A stretch of 46,435 bases of DNA, taken from positions 1 to 46,435 of the forward strand of contig JAGXIB010000086.1 of NCBI GenBank assembly GCA_024635865.1. Direction: 5' to 3'. The notes below the pieces were generated by a model. The model saw only the letters and a list, made by a program, of their open reading frames with translations, searched no databases and had not been told where the DNA came from. This DNA comes from Flavobacteriales bacterium. Its GTDB lineage: Bacteria; Bacteroidota; Bacteroidia; Flavobacteriales_D; Parvicellaceae. This document shows, one piece after another, positions 26,330 to 41,838 of the stretch (its first letter is position 1; the number at the start of each line of letters is the position of its first letter). The position numbers and the translations under genes were made by a program.

Positions 26330-26989
26330 ATGACTAAACTTTTATTAACCATAATTCTAGGATTATTTGCTTTTGTTAATCTAGCTCAAGATACGCTTAC
26401 CGCTAAAGAAATGCAAATGGTAAAAGAAGAAATGGCTAGAACTCAAATACAGGAATTAAAAGGAGGAGTTTTATTGGTACAACTAAAAACTAAACAAAAT
26501 ACAATAGGTGCCTATAATACAAAAGGTTTAAGGGAAAAAGCTGATGAAGTTAAAGAGCTACAAGCGTTAGACAACATGAGCATCATAAAAGGATTTAAAG
26601 AATACTTTAATTTTTGTCCGGTATACTTTTACTACTCATCAGATAAAGAACACTTAAAAAACAAAGAATTTAGCTCTATTAAATTCCTAGACGACAGCCT
26701 TACTCCTATTTCATTAAACATTAGTTTAGATACAGTAAATTACTTCATTTCTGGCATTTCAAAAAGCAACTTTAACAATACAACTTTAAACAATATTTAT
26801 AATTACGAAAGGAAGTATGAAAGAGGGATTAAGTTCGATGCCTTTATTATTAAGAATAAAGACTTTCAACAACTTTCAGCTCCTTTTCCTTACTACGCAA
26901 AAACTCACACAGCAGTTAAAATTAATGATAAGAAAAGATGGGAATCGATTAAAAAGCTAAACGCTAGATTACATAATTTTTATCGCTAA
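26330..26989 (+). CDS. Hypothetical secreted protein
   Basis: Signal peptide LLLTIILGLFAFVNLAQD. No family recognised. Sits 38 nt downstream of the RND permease. Confidence 0.55.
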   Translation: MTKLLLTIILGLFAFVNLAQDTLTAKEMQMVKEEMARTQIQELKGGVLLVQLKTKQNTIGAYNTKGLREKADEVKELQALDNMSIIKGFKEYFNFCPVYFYYSSDKEHLKNKEFSSIKFLDDSLTPISLNISLDTVNYFISGISKSNFNNTTLNNIYNYERKYERGIKFDAFIIKNKDFQQLSAPFPYYAKTHTAVKINDKKRWESIKKLNARLHNFYR

Positions 26990-27002: not shown

Positions 27003-28148
27003 CTAGTCAGGGTCTGAAAACCTAGAATCAGTAACGAACTCCTCATCTGTTAACGTCAATAAAAAAGCTTTTAAGTCCGCTCTATCTTGTGGATTTAATT
27101 GAACACCTCCTGTACTAACATTTTTCATTAGAGGATCAATGGTACTTGAATATTGCAAACCAATACTGTAATGATTAATTACCTCATCTATAGTTTGAAA
27201 ACGACCATCATGCATATAAGGTGCTGTATATAATAAGTTCCTTAATGATGGCGTTTTAAATTTACCATTGTCTGAAGGATTCCCAGTCACCGCTCCTCTA
27301 CCTAAGTCAGAAAAACTAGCATCTAATCCATTGTTATGATAAAGATTATCTGTCCATAAAGGGTTATAAGGATCTCCATGGCAATGAAAACAATCTCCAC
27401 CAGACTCATCCATAAAAATATTATATCCACTTAATTCAGAAGGATTCAACGTTAAGTGCCCTTTTAAATATTTATCAAATTTTGAATTCCCTGAGATTAA
27501 AGTACGTTCAAATTGAGCCAATGCTTTTACGACTAAATTAGAGTCTATCACATTCGTTCCAAAAGCTCTTTCAAATAATTCAGGATACTTATCATCGGCT
27601 TGTAACTCACTAACAGCACTACCCCATGTGTTATGCATTTCTATCGGGTTAGTTACAGGTTCAAAAGCTTGACCTTCTAGCCCAATTGATCTTCCATCCC
27701 AAAAAAATTGGTATCCATAATCCCAAGCCATATTCATAAGCGGCATTGAGTTTCTATTACCAGCTATTCCATCAATACCAACACTAAAGGTAGCATCATC
27801 TGTAAATGCATTTTCTTGTTTATGACAGCTAGCACAGCTAATTGTATTGTTTGCAGATAGTTTTTCTTCATAAAATAATTTTCTTCCTAAAGCTATACCT
27901 TCATTTGTTAAAGGATTATCATTTGGAATACTTGGAGCAGGTAAATATTGGCTAATAGTATATGGAGCTTCTAGCGTATAGGGTGTTGGAGCTGGAATTA
28001 CCTCATACTCACAAGTCCCATCATCTTTTTCTGCATTAACATCATAGTTTAACGCAGTAACATCTGTACATCCTTTAGGTTTTCTACAACTAGAATTAAA
28101 AAGACTAATTGATAACAATAAAGAAACTAATATTAAATTATAATTCAT
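27003..28148 (-). CDS. Di-haem cytochrome c peroxidase-family lipoprotein (MauG/MbnH-like)
   Basis: Lipobox LFNSSC. Two haem c sites, CASCH and CFHCH. PSLRNLLYTAPYMHDGRF is the CCP/MauG signature. Adjacent to the MbnP-like gene. Confidence 0.88.
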   Translation of the reverse strand: MNYNLILVSLLLSISLFNSSCRKPKGCTDVTALNYDVNAEKDDGTCEYEVIPAPTPYTLEAPYTISQYLPAPSIPNDNPLTNEGIALGRKLFYEEKLSANNTISCASCHKQENAFTDDATFSVGIDGIAGNRNSMPLMNMAWDYGYQFFWDGRSIGLEGQAFEPVTNPIEMHNTWGSAVSELQADDKYPELFERAFGTNVIDSNLVVKALAQFERTLISGNSKFDKYLKGHLTLNPSELSGYNIFMDESGGDCFHCHGDPYNPLWTDNLYHNNGLDASFSDLGRGAVTGNPSDNGKFKTPSLRNLLYTAPYMHDGRFQTIDEVINHYSIGLQYSSTIDPLMKNVSTGGVQLNPQDRADLKAFLLTLTDEEFVTDSRFSDPD

Positions 28149-28162
28149 ATTAACAAAAATAG

Positions 28163-28198
28163 AAAAAAACCTAGCCTTTAGTTAAACTAGGCCTTTTT
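28163..28198 (-). terminator. Intra-cluster hairpin plus U-tract between the MbnP-like and peroxidase genes (possible attenuator or partial terminator)
   Basis: The minus-strand RNA reads aaaaaggccuag-uuuaacuaaagg-cuagguuuuuuu. The core stem is ccuag/cuagg, extendable by two G-U and several A-U pairs, and the 3' side runs into U7. The stem is weak. Confidence 0.3.
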
Positions 28199-28221
28199 GA
28201 TAATTAAAATTACAGACTAAA

Positions 28222-29085
28222 TTACTGAACAATCGAACCTAAACTAAATACAGAACGACCATTAGCATTCATCATTTTCTGAACAGTATAATTTGGCATC
28301 AACATATCGTGTAATGCATCTAAATCCCATTGATTTGGATTTTTAAACCATTCGGATAAATCCATGTTTAAATTAATAGAAGCGTCATTAGACAATGTAA
28401 ATGATTGATTTAACTTCACATAAAAATGATTTGCTTCGTGATTACCATTGTTAGAAGCTGTTCCATTATGAAAAGCAAAAGCAGTAGTATCTGTGTTCGA
28501 ATCAATGAATTTACCTTCTAACTTCATGAAGTGATATCCTCCTCCAATCATGGCTGGCCAAGACCAACTTGCGACATTTAAGTCAGCATAAGTTCCACTT
28601 GTATTATCTGCTTCGTCAAATCCCCATGTAAATCCAACGCCAGTATAACCTCCTATTGGAACATGCATTTCTGTTGGAAAAGAATAAGCAAAAGAATTCG
28701 TATTGTCAAAATCGACAAAATTATAACCTTCTACTACTATACTATCTCCATCTGCTTTATAAAGTACAAAATCAGATATTAAATATTGTAATTTAGTGAT
28801 ACTGTGCGTCGTTCCTTTATCGTTAAGATACTTTAAATCGTCAAAATCGGCTGGCATAACTGAAGAACCTCCATAATTATGCTCCATTTTCATCATGACA
28901 TGGACTCCATTATGATCGCCATGACCTGTTATTGTATCAAATTCACAAGTGCCGTCATCTTTTTTTGCGTTAGCATCATAGTTTGTTGCATCAGCATCTG
29001 TACACCCTTTCTTTTTACAAGATGTAGTTCCAAAAGCAAGTGATAAACCTATTATTCCTGCTATTATTATTTTTGTATTTTTCAT
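28222..29085 (-). CDS. MbnP-like lipoprotein (putative kynurenine-dependent copper-binding protein family)
   Basis: Lipobox AFGTTSC. ITKLQYLISDFVLYKADGDS, VPIGGYTGVGFTWGFDEADN, SWSWPAMIGGGYHFMKLEGKF and FAFHNGTA match my recollection of MbnP-family proteins. It sits directly upstream of a MauG/MbnH-like peroxidase. Confidence 0.6.
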   Translation of the reverse strand: MKNTKIIIAGIIGLSLAFGTTSCKKKGCTDADATNYDANAKKDDGTCEFDTITGHGDHNGVHVMMKMEHNYGGSSVMPADFDDLKYLNDKGTTHSITKLQYLISDFVLYKADGDSIVVEGYNFVDFDNTNSFAYSFPTEMHVPIGGYTGVGFTWGFDEADNTSGTYADLNVASWSWPAMIGGGYHFMKLEGKFIDSNTDTTAFAFHNGTASNNGNHEANHFYVKLNQSFTLSNDASINLNMDLSEWFKNPNQWDLDALHDMLMPNYTVQKMMNANGRSVFSLGSIVQ

Positions 29086-29102
29086 TTTTTTATTTTTTTA
29101 TT

Positions 29103-29987
29103 TTAAAAGTTATAATTCAAACCAACTGTTGTTCTGTTGGTTGTAAAAAGTTGTTTTTCTCCATTTAAATTAGAAGAAAACACTTTTTGGTACTGAGCAT
29201 TAATACTCCAATTATCCTTATATAATTTAAGACCTAAATTCCCGAAAAAGGTTGTCCCCCCAGAGTCATTAATTATTGAATATTCATAATCTTTTTCAAA
29301 ATTTTCTACATAAACACCTGTAAAAGGCATTATAAGTAAATTCTTGGTAGATTTCATATAAAATATGTTCCCATTGAAGTTTAATGTATTTCCATATCTA
29401 AAGTTCTCATTATTATAAGTATTAAACTTAACATTCAAATTGGAAGAAAACCCAAGACTCTTGTACCTTAAAGAATAAGTGGAAATAAAAATAAAATCCC
29501 AGCTACCTGAGCCTGGTTGTATATCTAAATTAGGCTTTCCATAGGCATAAGACTTATTAATACTTCCTAAAGGAATTTTAACTCCTCCTCCTAAAGTAAA
29601 ACGATGTATCACTTTCTCCGAAGAATCCGCTGTTTCTTTCGTGTTATATACTTGATAGGTTTGCATCAGTATAGGATCTGCTATTCCTTTGACTCTATAC
29701 TTTGCTAAGCCATCAATCTTTTGAGTATTATCAACAACGGGGAAAGTAACCATCGTTTTCCACTTCTCTCTCCAATAAAATGTTCCTCTTAATTCGTAAG
29801 TACGATAAAGGTCTTCTATTTTTTTATTCAAGAAGTCACTCGTTTCTACTCCTCCATGCTTTAAGTAAATTTGACCTAACTCATTATATGTTCCAGACAT
29901 ATAACGCGTATGACGATAGAACCCTATTGAGTTTCTATAATCGTTTGGTGAAATATTAAAAAAAACATTGCAATTATTCACATGCAA
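29103..29987 (-). CDS. Outer-membrane beta-barrel protein body (~294 aa), apparently separated from its signal peptide by a frameshift
   Basis: Alternating hydrophobic strands throughout and a C-terminal ...TTVGLNYNF with terminal Phe. The track ORF starts at a TTG with no signal peptide. A signal-peptide mini-ORF lies just upstream in another frame. Confidence 0.6.
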   Translation of the reverse strand: MHVNNCNVFFNISPNDYRNSIGFYRHTRYMSGTYNELGQIYLKHGGVETSDFLNKKIEDLYRTYELRGTFYWREKWKTMVTFPVVDNTQKIDGLAKYRVKGIADPILMQTYQVYNTKETADSSEKVIHRFTLGGGVKIPLGSINKSYAYGKPNLDIQPGSGSWDFIFISTYSLRYKSLGFSSNLNVKFNTYNNENFRYGNTLNFNGNIFYMKSTKNLLIMPFTGVYVENFEKDYEYSIINDSGGTTFFGNLGLKLYKDNWSINAQYQKVFSSNLNGEKQLFTTNRTTVGLNYNF

Positions 29988-30036
29988 AAGACGAAACAGA
30001 TTGAATAATGAATAAAATTATTATTATTTTTTTCAT
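29974..30036 (-). other. Orphan 20-codon signal-peptide ORF (MKKIIIILFIIQSVSSFACE*) overlapping the 5' end of the barrel ORF in a different frame
   Basis: ATG at 30036..30034 and stop TAA at 29976..29974. The barrel frame is open from 30017 downward and is offset by +1. Confidence 0.7.
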
Positions 30037-30121
30037 TTTCTTAATTCATAAAGCAGTGCTAAACCACTTTAAATAAACAATTGTTTTAGTACATCTAAAA
30101 CTTAATATTCGTTTATAATCA

Positions 30122-30511
30122 TTAAGCTACACGAGGTGGTTTGAAGACGATAGAAAGAAAATCTTTTGTTAATCTTAAGTCTTTAGCATACAATCTAAGT
30201 TTATTCTGATTAGGAAATAAACTCATATCCAGTTGATTCAGCTGTTGAAATGAAAAAATAGATATTGCAGAAACATATACTTCTTCTGAAGTACAATTCT
30301 CATTTTCTGTACTACTTAATTTTAATTCTTTTGCTAAATGACAAGTACCGTTACAATTTAACTCAGGAAGCTCTTTATTCTCACAATACTTTTCTGTATA
30401 ATTCTCTTGATCTACCACATAGTTAACTAATATCACAGACTGAATAATTACCGACAAAAATAATGATGCGATAAAAAATGAAATGACAATATAGTTATAC
30501 TTAGTATTCAT
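30122..30511 (-). CDS. Small single-pass membrane protein with a Cys-rich motif (uncharacterised family)
   Basis: One TM helix (YIVISFFIASLFLSVIIQSVILV), then YCENKELPELNCNGTCHLAKEL (C43, C53, C57, plus C73). The C-terminus is ...IVFKPPRVA. It is the first gene of the minus-strand cluster. Confidence 0.6.
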   Translation of the reverse strand: MNTKYNYIVISFFIASLFLSVIIQSVILVNYVVDQENYTEKYCENKELPELNCNGTCHLAKELKLSSTENENCTSEEVYVSAISIFSFQQLNQLDMSLFPNQNKLRLYAKDLRLTKDFLSIVFKPPRVA

Positions 30512-30598
30512 TATTCATACAAATATAATTCACTATTGACTAAAAAAAACTGATATTAGTCAGATATATTGAGAAATAAGCTGAAAAAAGGCTGTAAT

Positions 30599-40692: not shown

Positions 40693-41838
40693 ATGATTAT
40701 GGGAACTTCTTTAAAATCATTTTTAATCATATTTTCACTACTTTTTTCGTTTCACTCATGTAAACCTAAAGGGTGTACCGATAGTAATGCTTCAAACTAC
40801 GACAGCAAAGCAAAAAAGGATGATGGATCTTGCCTTCTTGAACAAACGACAGGAAGTTCTGTTCTTTCACCAATAAGTGACTCATCAACTATATTAGGCT
40901 ACAACCTCTTAGAGAAGTTACCTGGGATATGGAATGGTCCTGTAACTTCACCAACTCCATTAGGCAGTTACCCTGAATGGATTGTTGATTTTAGACCAAT
41001 TTCAGCTTCACAAGTTTCTGCGAAGAATGAATTAGACTCTATAAATGATATTTTTATGAGTTTTTTTACTGTAAAGCATAATAATGAATACAAAATAGCA
41101 TTTAGAAACGGAGGTGGTTTTGCTGGGTCTGTTCGCAATGCCTATCAAGTCTTAGAAAGTTTTAATGAAACTCCATCAGCATCCTATTATAAATTTGTAG
41201 ATCCAGAAGCTGGGGAAAACAGAGTTTATACAGACATTACTTTTAAACAAGACAGCTTAATCATGCATGTTTTTACTAATCAATTCAATACATTATCAAC
41301 AGCTGTTACGCACATGAAGTGGAACGCAAAATTAAAAGACTTGACTTCTACTCAAAATGCTATTAACTTATTTAATTACCCTAAAAAAGAAATGACTAAA
41401 GACTTTACAACTACTTTTGATGGGCAAACAGATGCTGTTTTTTATTCTACCTCTTCTGACCCATATCCAGAAAGCGAACAACCTTATTTGGGTAACTCTA
41501 CCATAAACATAACAATTACCAATCCTACCAATATAAACCCTAGTAATAAAGTCCTTGTTATTCTTACTACTCAACCTTTATTTAATAACTTTACATTTCT
41601 TACTGCTAATTTAAAATATAGATCTCGCTATGTTTTTGTTGATGCAAAGGTTAATACTAGTTTTAACTTTAACTATATGCATCCGGGAACATATTACGTA
41701 AACACAATATATGACAACAATGGAGATTATAGTTTTTCAAGTGGTGATTACATGAACAGTAATGTTGATGTGCCATTAACATTGACCAATAAAGGAACTA
41801 CAAATACAAACGTAACAATAGATTTTCAAATCCCTTAA
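40693..41838 (+). CDS. Two-domain lipoprotein: Cys-bracketed N-terminal module, lipocalin-like domain (GIWNG) and C-terminal beta-sandwich-like domain
   Basis: Lipobox FSFHSC, followed by KPKGCTDSNASNYDSKAKKDDGSC. LPGIWNGPVTSP resembles the lipocalin GxW start. The C-terminus contains HPGTYYVNTIYDNNGDYSFSSGDY. Confidence 0.6.
   Translation: MIMGTSLKSFLIIFSLLFSFHSCKPKGCTDSNASNYDSKAKKDDGSCLLEQTTGSSVLSPISDSSTILGYNLLEKLPGIWNGPVTSPTPLGSYPEWIVDFRPISASQVSAKNELDSINDIFMSFFTVKHNNEYKIAFRNGGGFAGSVRNAYQVLESFNETPSASYYKFVDPEAGENRVYTDITFKQDSLIMHVFTNQFNTLSTAVTHMKWNAKLKDLTSTQNAINLFNYPKKEMTKDFTTTFDGQTDAVFYSTSSDPYPESEQPYLGNSTINITITNPTNINPSNKVLVILTTQPLFNNFTFLTANLKYRSRYVFVDAKVNTSFNFNYMHPGTYYVNTIYDNNGDYSFSSGDYMNSNVDVPLTLTNKGTTNTNVTIDFQIP

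Follow-up and report, generated by a model that had tools for sequence, protein, structure and literature searches.

Copper acquisition in Gram-negative bacteria is poorly understood, and nearly all data come from Proteobacteria. In the MbnP/MbnH pair of Methylosinus trichosporium OB3b (7L6G and 6E1C), which forms a kynurenine-dependent Cu(I) site, co-expression of MbnH leads to oxidation of Trp174 of MbnP, the first residue of a conserved WxW, to kynurenine, and Cu(I) is then bound tightly with His, Met, solvent, and kynurenine as ligands (review, PMC11951088). Enzymes of the MauG type have a His-Tyr E haem, whereas canonical peroxidases have His-Met (PMC11892367). CruR (Bp2923) of Bordetella pertussis, a DUF2946 protein, heads copper operons with TonB-dependent transporters, PCuAC, Sco, YcnI, CopC, and "MbnPH-like genes", with long intergenic regions after it; its CXXC-RAPP spacing is constant within one or two residues, and when its nascent chain senses copper, the arrest is relieved and Rho-dependent termination is triggered (PMC9426467). 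DUF2946 is found mostly in Proteobacteria (Roy et al., PMC9426467). CutF of Rhodobacter capsulatus carries a signal peptide, a CxxxC, and a C-terminal PPP and senses periplasmic copper co-translationally (PMC9973294). Here we analysed a window that is the complete 46,435-bp contig JAGXIB010000086.1, from an uncultured source, whose closest relatives are Flavobacteriales metagenome-assembled genomes (MAGs). Four adjacent minus-strand genes in it encode a small Cys-containing leader protein, an outer-membrane barrel, an MbnP-family lipoprotein, and an MbnH-like di-haem enzyme. As we read the sequence, with moderate confidence, they would form a Bacteroidota copper-homeostasis operon, most likely for acquisition, with a regulatory leader, a TonB-independent barrel, MbnP, and the MbnH that matures it. 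The features of the cluster are as follows.

30122..30511, minus strand: leader open reading frame (ORF), 129 aa, proposed CruR/CutF-like copper-sensing arrest peptide.
About residues 9-27 of the leader: N-terminal transmembrane segment.
30385-30338, minus strand: leader Cys motif C43-x9-C53-N-G-T-C57-H58.
30139-30134, minus strand: the Pro-Pro codons of the leader C-terminal F123-K-P125-P126, three residues ahead of the stop.
30037..30121, minus strand: leader-barrel spacer, 85 nt.
29103..30036, minus strand: barrel gene, 12-stranded, COG4313/FapF type, ATG at 30036, carrying a 1-nt insertion; its product has a signal peptide, then CDNC, conserved at the start of the mature protein, and ends in ...NYNF.
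28222..29085, minus strand: MbnP-family lipoprotein, 287 aa, with a Pfam MbnP match and predicted to be a lipoprotein.
27003..28148, minus strand: MbnH-like di-haem MauG-type enzyme, 381 aa, predicted lipoprotein, with CASCH (105), the FWDGR inter-haem Trp motif (149), CFHCH (253), PSLRN (300), HDG (313), and Tyr327.

Re-reading of the ORFs returned the same four minus-strand genes that had been reported in an earlier, sequence-only reading of this DNA, at 30511-30122 (129 aa), 29987-29103 (294 aa from a TTG), 29085-28222 (287 aa), and 28148-27003 (381 aa), with gaps of 134, 17, and 73 nt. All the motifs quoted in that reading were located (CENKELPELNCNGTCH, VGLNYNF, ITKLQYLISDFVLYKADGDS, SWSWPAMIGGGYHFMKLEGKF, FAFHNGTA, CASCH, CFHCH, and PSLRN..APYMHDG), and the flanks were as it had claimed, with purC upstream (NF009251, 486 bits) and a convergent 219-aa ORF downstream. 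Its two family assignments also held. The 287-aa protein, which it had placed in the MbnP family, matches Pfam PF20243 over residues 63-255, scoring 107.7 bits where the cutoff is 27, and the 381-aa protein, which it had placed in the di-haem CCP/MauG/MbnH family, matches CCP_MauG PF03150 with 189 bits and has two CxxCH motifs.

The window genes share with the OB3b pair their adjacency and the Pfam MbnP domain. A phmmer search with the window MbnP against Protein Data Bank (PDB) sequences returned nothing relevant, and the window protein is linked to 7L6G only through the family: the top PDB match of a profile built from 73 cluster MbnPs was 7L6G (MbnP), at a marginal E = 0.011. In this profile alignment, the WxW falls on the WNW of MbnP, and the His of FxxHxG falls on the MbnP His (the FxxHxG/WMVHVG stretch). 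The WxW of the window protein is W174-S-W176, and W174 is invariant (73/73 homologues); the His is H206, with a matching His in 56/73. The window clade of MbnP additionally conserves an inserted PA(M/G)(I/L)GGGYH(F/Y)M, which supplies the clade-specific His185 and Met187 that distinguish the window protein from OB3b MbnP.

The 381-aa protein scored best among NCBIfam models with TIGR04039 (MbnH, 260.5 bits; MauG, 176.7), and its closest solved structure was 6E1C (MbnH, 196.8 bits; the best canonical peroxidase scored 149). Twelve residues beyond HDG is Tyr327, which aligns with a Tyr of 6E1C, and an E haem with the His-Tyr ligation of MauG-type enzymes is predicted from this alignment. A Tyr at +12 from HDG is present in 31/49 cluster-associated homologues. 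As a separate observation, 8/49 of these di-haem enzymes carry Lys in place of Tyr at the E-haem axial-ligand position (...FK(S/T)N; for example, in loci L011, L015, L016, and L020), which suggests, from the alignment, a further ligation variant in the MauG/MbnH superfamily.

In contrast with the OB3b pair, both window proteins are predicted to be lipoproteins and carry an additional Cys-bounded module at the N-terminus, and the window contains neither a methanobactin operon nor MbnT. The module, CTDxxAxNYDxxAxKDDG(S/T)C after the lipobox Cys, occurs at 29004-28945 (MbnP), 28070-28011 (MbnH), and 40774-40833. The last of these lies in an unrelated 381-aa lipoprotein (40693-41838), and the same module is found in the MbnP, MbnH, and YtkA-like proteins of some related loci. 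Because the unrelated lipoprotein has it too, the module looks like a lineage-specific lipoprotein feature. The only Cys residues of the window MbnP are the lipobox Cys and the two within its module (CTDxxAxNYDxxAxKDDGTC).

To examine gene order, one genome per species was scanned with the leader alignment, which gave 328 confirmed relatives; the best 80 loci were kept and mapped with hidden Markov models (HMMs) of the four families, built locally and iterated. The loci with trustworthy record titles are from Bacteroidota. Four contigs (L029, L031, L049, and L060) titled as 'Candidatus Planktophila lacus', 'Actinomyces viscosus', and 'Candidatus Kuenenia stuttgartiensis' MAGs carry a cluster of the Bacteroidota type and are most likely mislabelled or contaminated bins. 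The leader gene opens every same-strand run in the mapped loci. Partners were counted for 64 leader genes from distinct species genomes, each with at least 4.5 kb of downstream sequence: barrel, MbnP, and MbnH were all present in 34, barrel and MbnP in 11, MbnP and MbnH in 7, and none of the three in 10. The barrel (~310 aa) was in the cluster for 46/64. The flanking genes vary from locus to locus; thus, the co-conservation of the four genes claimed in the sequence-only reading was borne out, with the same genes found in differing genomic surroundings.

Six types of run were distinguished. The window order, leader-barrel-MbnP-MbnH, is one, and leader-MbnP-MbnH-barrel (Flavobacteriaceae, Hymenobacter) is another. 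Longer runs carry two MbnP paralogues, small cytochrome-c-like proteins, and BNR/sortilin proteins secreted by the type IX secretion system (T9SS). Other runs contain the leader, a YtkA-like lipoprotein, a TonB-dependent receptor, sometimes a further leader, MbnP, and MbnH, as in Winogradskyella, Myroides, and others, where the leader stands ahead of a YtkA-like protein, a TonB-dependent receptor, MbnP, and MbnH. Finally, there are runs of the leader, a YtkA-like lipoprotein, and a TonB-dependent receptor, and runs of the leader and a TonB-dependent receptor only. No TonB-dependent receptor is present in the window cluster, and none was seen beside the barrel in the gene maps of the relatives. 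The barrel and the YtkA-like protein with its TonB-dependent receptor therefore alternate behind the same leader, which supports placing the barrel in the transporter position. The sequence-only reading had given this position to the barrel together with the Cys-rich small protein; the barrel part stood, as an alternate of YtkA-like protein plus TonB-dependent receptor in similar operons. The small protein does not replace the receptor: its relatives lie directly upstream of such receptors in several genomes and always come first, so the small protein is itself outside the alternation. It is probably not a structural partner.

Two groups of runs showed further features. In the long operons (L011, L012, L015, L016, L018, L020, and L025; at about 12.4-17.3 kb of each locus), we observed 125-aa and in some 131-aa weakly cytochrome-c-like proteins, an ~800-aa BNR/sortilin protein and an ~170-aa protein, both with T9SS C-terminal sorting domains, and a second MbnP paralogue, the first copy being without the conserved His. 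In L024, L032, L037, L040, and L052 (Hymenobacter and others), leader-MbnP-barrel is followed by a 116-152-aa protein with no MbnH in the same-strand run, which raises the question of what oxidises MbnP there.

The leader was then compared with CruR and CutF. It shares with them an export signal or N-in/C-out transmembrane segment, a Cys metal motif, a Pro-Pro about three residues before the stop, a fixed spacing between the two motifs, the position of first gene in copper operons (in which TonB-dependent transporters and MbnPH-like genes may follow), and a long downstream spacer. Under the operational definition of CutF-like proteins (<150 aa, a signal peptide, PP in the last 15 residues, and a same-strand downstream gene within 1000 nt; PMC9973294), the window leader is CutF-like on all four counts, with 129 aa, a transmembrane anchor, PP at 125-126, and the barrel gene 85 nt downstream. 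By iterative searches, Ozturk et al. collected 5,334 CutF-like proteins, of which 19% were from Bacteroidota (40% after normalisation) (PMC9973294). The metal motif differs, being C-x9-C-x-G-x-C-H in the leader and CXXC or CxxxC in CruR and CutF, and the hosts of the leader family are Bacteroidota. The window leader matched no Pfam or NCBIfam family, and PF11162 (DUF2946) was not matched at E<=1; none of 83 leader-family members matched a Pfam or NCBIfam family, with 0/83 for PF11162 at E<=0.01. An NCBI label considered for the family, "HYC_CC_PP family protein", was not confirmed and is used by no paper, and it was dropped.

Within the family, the anatomy is strongly conserved. C-x9-C-x-G-x-C is present in 82/83 members, in the form CNGKCH in 71, an N-terminal hydrophobic or transmembrane segment in 80/83, and PP 2-5 residues ahead of the stop in 78/83, within the C-terminal consensus (I/V)-F-(H/R/Q/K/P)-P-P-x-(V/A)-stop. 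The distance from the Cys motif to PP is 64-74 residues in 77 members (median 68), and the linker between them is weakly conserved in sequence and fixed in length. An independent set gave the same picture: when the 1.84 billion representatives of a 50%-identity library were searched, 5,669 were returned at E<=1e-3, and among the best 149 of these both motifs were found in 148, with a spacing of 64-75 in 147/148 (median 67). Between the leader and the gene that follows, the median spacer in leader-family loci is 116 nt, in contrast with 10 nt from barrel to mbnP and -23 nt from mbnH to barrel. Since this anatomy is shared and yet the formal test, a PF11162 match, failed, the leader family is best regarded, on sequence grounds, as analogous in function to CruR/CutF, and possibly as very distantly related to them, with another metal motif, another arrest-like motif, and another spacing.

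A second, divergent leader paralogue (CKGxCY, ...FHPP) was observed on the minus strand at L016 8221-8598 and L033 8239-8616. This divergently transcribed paralogue adjoins an SCO1/SenC gene and stands ahead of an AraC-type regulator and cytochrome-c-domain proteins.

The small protein could instead be a stable, membrane-anchored periplasmic part that binds copper or acts in thiol redox, for example by relaying copper between MbnP and the channel or receptor of the outer membrane, or onward to an inner-membrane importer. It has a transmembrane anchor, its invariant Cys/His motif would face the periplasm, it accompanies every kind of outer-membrane partner, and 129 aa is long for a leader peptide. 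However, its conservation is limited to the Cys motif and the last few residues at a fixed overall length, PP lies 2-5 residues from the stop, and the gene always comes first with a long spacer after it. Moreover, an AlphaFold2 (AF2) model contained an N-terminal helix only, with the rest unstructured and no folded domain (predicted local distance difference test (pLDDT) 46.5 from a shallow alignment, too poor for a fold search), and CruR and CutF are of similar size and undetectable as stable proteins (PMC9426467, PMC9973294). We consider a stable periplasmic part rather unlikely and retain the regulatory leader.

Downstream of the leader, the sequence-only reading had recognised an outer-membrane barrel of about 300 aa. 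The fold was supported, by PF13557 in distant homologues and by an AlphaFold model that matches FapF and Pput2725, but a frameshift and the signal peptide had been missed. Barrel homologues are 309-318 aa long, mostly 310, and start with MKKIIIILFIIQSVSSFACDNCNVF; their N-terminal signal peptide is followed by ACDNCN. In the window, the signal peptide begins at ATG 30036 in another frame and ends in ...FACE and a stop. The frame is broken by an extra A near 29978 (GAT to GAAT), which was absent from four related contigs (L088, L095, L096, and L097) in the DNA alignment. Because the true barrel start is 30036, the leader-barrel gap is 85 nt, and because the extra A is absent from the four related contigs, the indel is an assembly error or a strain-specific lesion and not a conserved feature.

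The insertion also bears on the possibility that the system is decaying in this genome, with the barrel split from its signal peptide as a pseudogene. The extra A is missing from the four relatives, and the signal-peptide frame reaches a stop two codons later, as such decay would have it. Against this, the only lesion is one indel, the ORF being otherwise intact and 92% identical to the homologue P0001, the other three genes are intact, and the contig is a metagenome or single-cell assembly, in which single-base indel errors are common; decay thus seems quite unlikely.

Sequence searches with the barrel found relatives of ~310-320 aa and more distant proteins of ~350 aa that carry PF13557; the window protein itself gave no match to the PF13557 profile at E<=1. 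The AlphaFold model of P0001 (pLDDT 85.3, predicted TM-score (pTM) 0.80) was compared with solved structures by Foldseek, which returned FapF at E = 2e-11 and Pput2725 (4RL8) at E = 6e-9 with TM-scores of 0.60/0.68. The predicted barrel is therefore like Pput2725 and FapF (5O65) in having 12 strands, a similar size, TM-scores of 0.6-0.7, and an N-terminal segment before strand 1. It differs from them in the conserved CxxC at its mature N-terminus, in sister forms with Cys/His motifs and Met/His-rich loops, and in standing in a copper-type operon, not one for aromatic or lipid catabolism or amyloid export. Among 56 cluster-associated barrels, CxxC at the mature N-terminus (ACDxC[GN]C) is present in 37, C...CHC replaces it in about 18, and loops with at least 6 Met/His per 15 residues, such as MDMHMLAGHNHMMNG and HDHDHSH, occur in 19. 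Met/His-rich motifs are typical Cu(I)-binding sequences (cf. Ctr1, CusF, PcoC, and CopB). The barrel resembles MbnT and other TonB-dependent copper receptors in being the outer-membrane part whose gene neighbours an MbnP/MbnH pair, but it has neither a plug domain nor a TonB box, so that transport through it would be passive.

A second barrel subtype of ~350 aa was seen in L005, L011, L015, L016, L018-L021, L025, L027, L028, L031, L033, L049, and L051. In these proteins, C..(C)HC replaces the N-terminal CxxC, and the Met/His-rich loops (among them MDMHMLAGHNHMMNG and HDHDHSHADGH) look like Cu(I)-binding Mets motifs.

The direction of the system, uptake or defence, can be judged from its partners. 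No efflux pumps or multicopper oxidases were found in the mapped clusters, and an SCO1/SenC gene lies beside a leader paralogue and also near a distant barrel homologue. Uptake is favoured, since import- or assembly-type proteins (TonB-dependent receptors, YtkA-like proteins, and SCO1) serve as the alternative partners and efflux pumps and multicopper oxidases are missing from the clusters. If the operon served copper excess, by sequestration or detoxification, or another metal, the leader would switch it on at high metal, in the way that CutF controls CutO. Targets of CutF-type leaders are induced by copper, a link to Ni/Co is reported for some CutF-like clusters (PMC9973294), and the tight Cu(I) binding of MbnP (PMC11951088) would also suit sequestration. 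The same import- and assembly-type partners and the same absence from the clusters speak against excess, and the Cys plus Met/His-rich motifs point to Cu(I) rather than to another metal; overall, a role in excess or with another metal is unlikely, and copper acquisition is preferred.

From these assignments, the gene order, and the conserved motifs and spacing, we infer copper as the ligand, the direction of regulation, the channel function of the barrel, and kynurenine formation in a working model of copper acquisition. The nascent leader would be inserted N-in/C-out by its transmembrane segment and would bind copper through C-x9-C-x-G-x-C-H, while (I/V)-F-x-P-P would stall the ribosome three codons ahead of the stop. 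By altering the duration of the stall, copper binding would set how far the genes past the long spacer are transcribed or translated. Through the 12-stranded barrel, copper or a small copper complex would pass the outer membrane without TonB, and the N-terminal CxxC segment of the barrel may act as a metal-binding plug or hand-over site. The lipoprotein MbnP would then capture Cu(I) at a site that needs conversion of Trp174 to kynurenine, and the MauG-type di-haem lipoprotein MbnH would oxidise this Trp using H2O2. In its most specific form, in which Bacteroidota have their own, sequence-unrelated class of arrest peptide that gates TonB-independent copper uptake, with a CxxC-plug COG4313-type channel feeding a kynurenine-dependent MbnP, the model is tentative.

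Several results weigh against this model. The leader family has no detectable similarity to DUF2946 (PF11162), and its (I/V)-F-(H/R/Q/K/P)-P-P, an unproven candidate for the stall, differs from RAPP, RGPP, or PPP; its spacing of ~67 residues differs from ~45 in CruR/CutF, and a survey of RAPP/RGPP upstream ORFs found no copper-related ones in Bacteroidota (PMC12992588). Folding of the spacer after the leader was not clearly stronger than in controls, with a mean z of -2.18 across 73 loci vs -2.05 in 70 control same-strand spacers, and does not set the family apart. The window MbnP lacks the four-Cys signature of TIGR04052 (the proteobacterial four-Cys MbnP), with no NCBIfam match at E<=1, and the Met two residues before the Trp, which is present in 43/73 relatives and in the OB3b protein, is Ala. 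The score of the 381-aa protein with TIGR04039, 260.5 bits, is below the curated cutoff of 362.85. In addition, the barrel gene of this contig carries the frameshift, and the characterised COG4313 channels are linked to hydrophobic substrates, not metals (PMC4493636).

The last of these points leads to a barrel that imports a hydrophobic or organic substrate, with MbnH and MbnP serving a peroxide-dependent oxidation apart from metal capture. The closest structures are COG4313 Pput2725 and FapF, COG4313 channels have been implicated in hydrophobic-molecule uptake (PMC4493636), and the missing -2 Met of the window MbnP would be in keeping with such a role. It is hard to reconcile with barrels that have a conserved CxxC and Met/His-rich loops, with the invariant first Trp of the WxW and the His206 found here and in 56/73 relatives, or with the copper chaperones among the neighbours and the conserved Cys motif of the leader. 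We regard an organic substrate as very improbable and keep copper as the presumed cargo.

Signals at the promoter and RNA level were also searched for in the window, and the following candidates were noted.

30520..30527, minus strand: candidate promoter TATATTTG, lying 9 nt ahead of the leader ATG and fitting the Bacteroidota -7 consensus TAnnTTTG.
30101-30083, minus strand: palindrome GTTTTAG-N5-CTAAAAC followed by a T-rich tract, inside the leader-barrel spacer.
28163..28198, minus strand: terminator-like hairpin of 15 pairs with a T-run in the 73-nt mbnP-mbnH gap, by pattern match only.
28161-28154, minus strand: TATTTTTG directly after the terminator-like hairpin, 6 nt upstream of the mbnH ATG, by pattern match.

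The motif TAnnTTTG occurs at chance across the window (78 found vs 74 expected), and because it is not enriched, the evidence for the leader promoter is weak. The leader-barrel spacer contains no TAnnTTTG, and sigma-70 promoter scans of the window were at chance level. The stem of the spacer palindrome is conserved with a variable loop in the close relatives L095 (2975), L096 (4340), and L097 (2006), whose leader proteins are only 57% identical, and the palindrome could act as a hairpin in the RNA or as an operator bound by a protein. For the window spacer as a whole, the fold energy was not significant (z = -0.64). A perfect hairpin with a T-tail as a general attenuator signal was rejected, as it was found in 27/73 spacers vs 23.5 expected from shuffles. 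In the mbnP-mbnH gap, the hairpin and TATTTTTG, read from their sequence patterns, might allow MbnP and MbnH to be expressed at separate levels. Rfam gave no RNA family match anywhere within the window.

The surroundings of the cluster are of a housekeeping kind. A PhoH gene lies beyond purC, and the wider window carries ilvE, ffh, thiH, and a pump of the multidrug-type resistance-nodulation-division (RND) class. The neighbouring RND pump was considered as a member of the system and dropped because it is of the multidrug type, not CusA/CzcA. The convergent ORF encodes a secreted protein of 212-219 aa that gave no family match (window 26330-26989, plus strand; L088 3063-3722; L002 11470-12108). 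It is kept directly after mbnH, in convergent orientation, in the closest relatives only, which is probably local synteny and not a part of the system.

The sequence-only reading had called the cluster uncharacterised. This stands for experiments, but MbnPH-like genes behind CruR-type leaders (PMC9426467) and an abundance of CutF-like proteins in Bacteroidota (PMC9973294) have been reported. The building blocks are all of known kinds, namely, MbnP/MbnH pairs in non-methanobactin copper contexts, CruR/CutF-type leaders, and COG4313 barrels, and the cluster is most simply taken as an uncharacterised Bacteroidota variant of known copper-homeostasis modules, whose function and regulation we infer from sequence comparison. 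Three elements appear undescribed in the searched literature: a COG4313-type barrel with CxxC or Met/His motifs standing where sister operons have a TonB-dependent receptor, a leader family with F-x-P-P and a spacing of ~67 residues, and a divergent lipoprotein clade of MbnP.

The cluster is widespread, as the 5,669 leader representatives and the 328 confirmed relatives indicate, and it offers three ideas that can be put to the test: a protein with kynurenine-bound copper outside the methanotrophs, a small barrel independent of TonB in place of the TonB-dependent copper receptor of sister operons, and a non-RAPP candidate arrest peptide in a phylum whose translation initiation and regulation are unlike those of model organisms. 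With several carriers in culture (Parvicella tangerina, Winogradskyella, Algibacter, Lacinutrix, and Hymenobacter), experiments are feasible, and the subject is relevant to Bacteroidota of marine and fresh waters that rely on copper enzymes. If the proposal in its most specific form is true, its arrest motif would be new and its barrel would be the first COG4313 channel to transport a metal.

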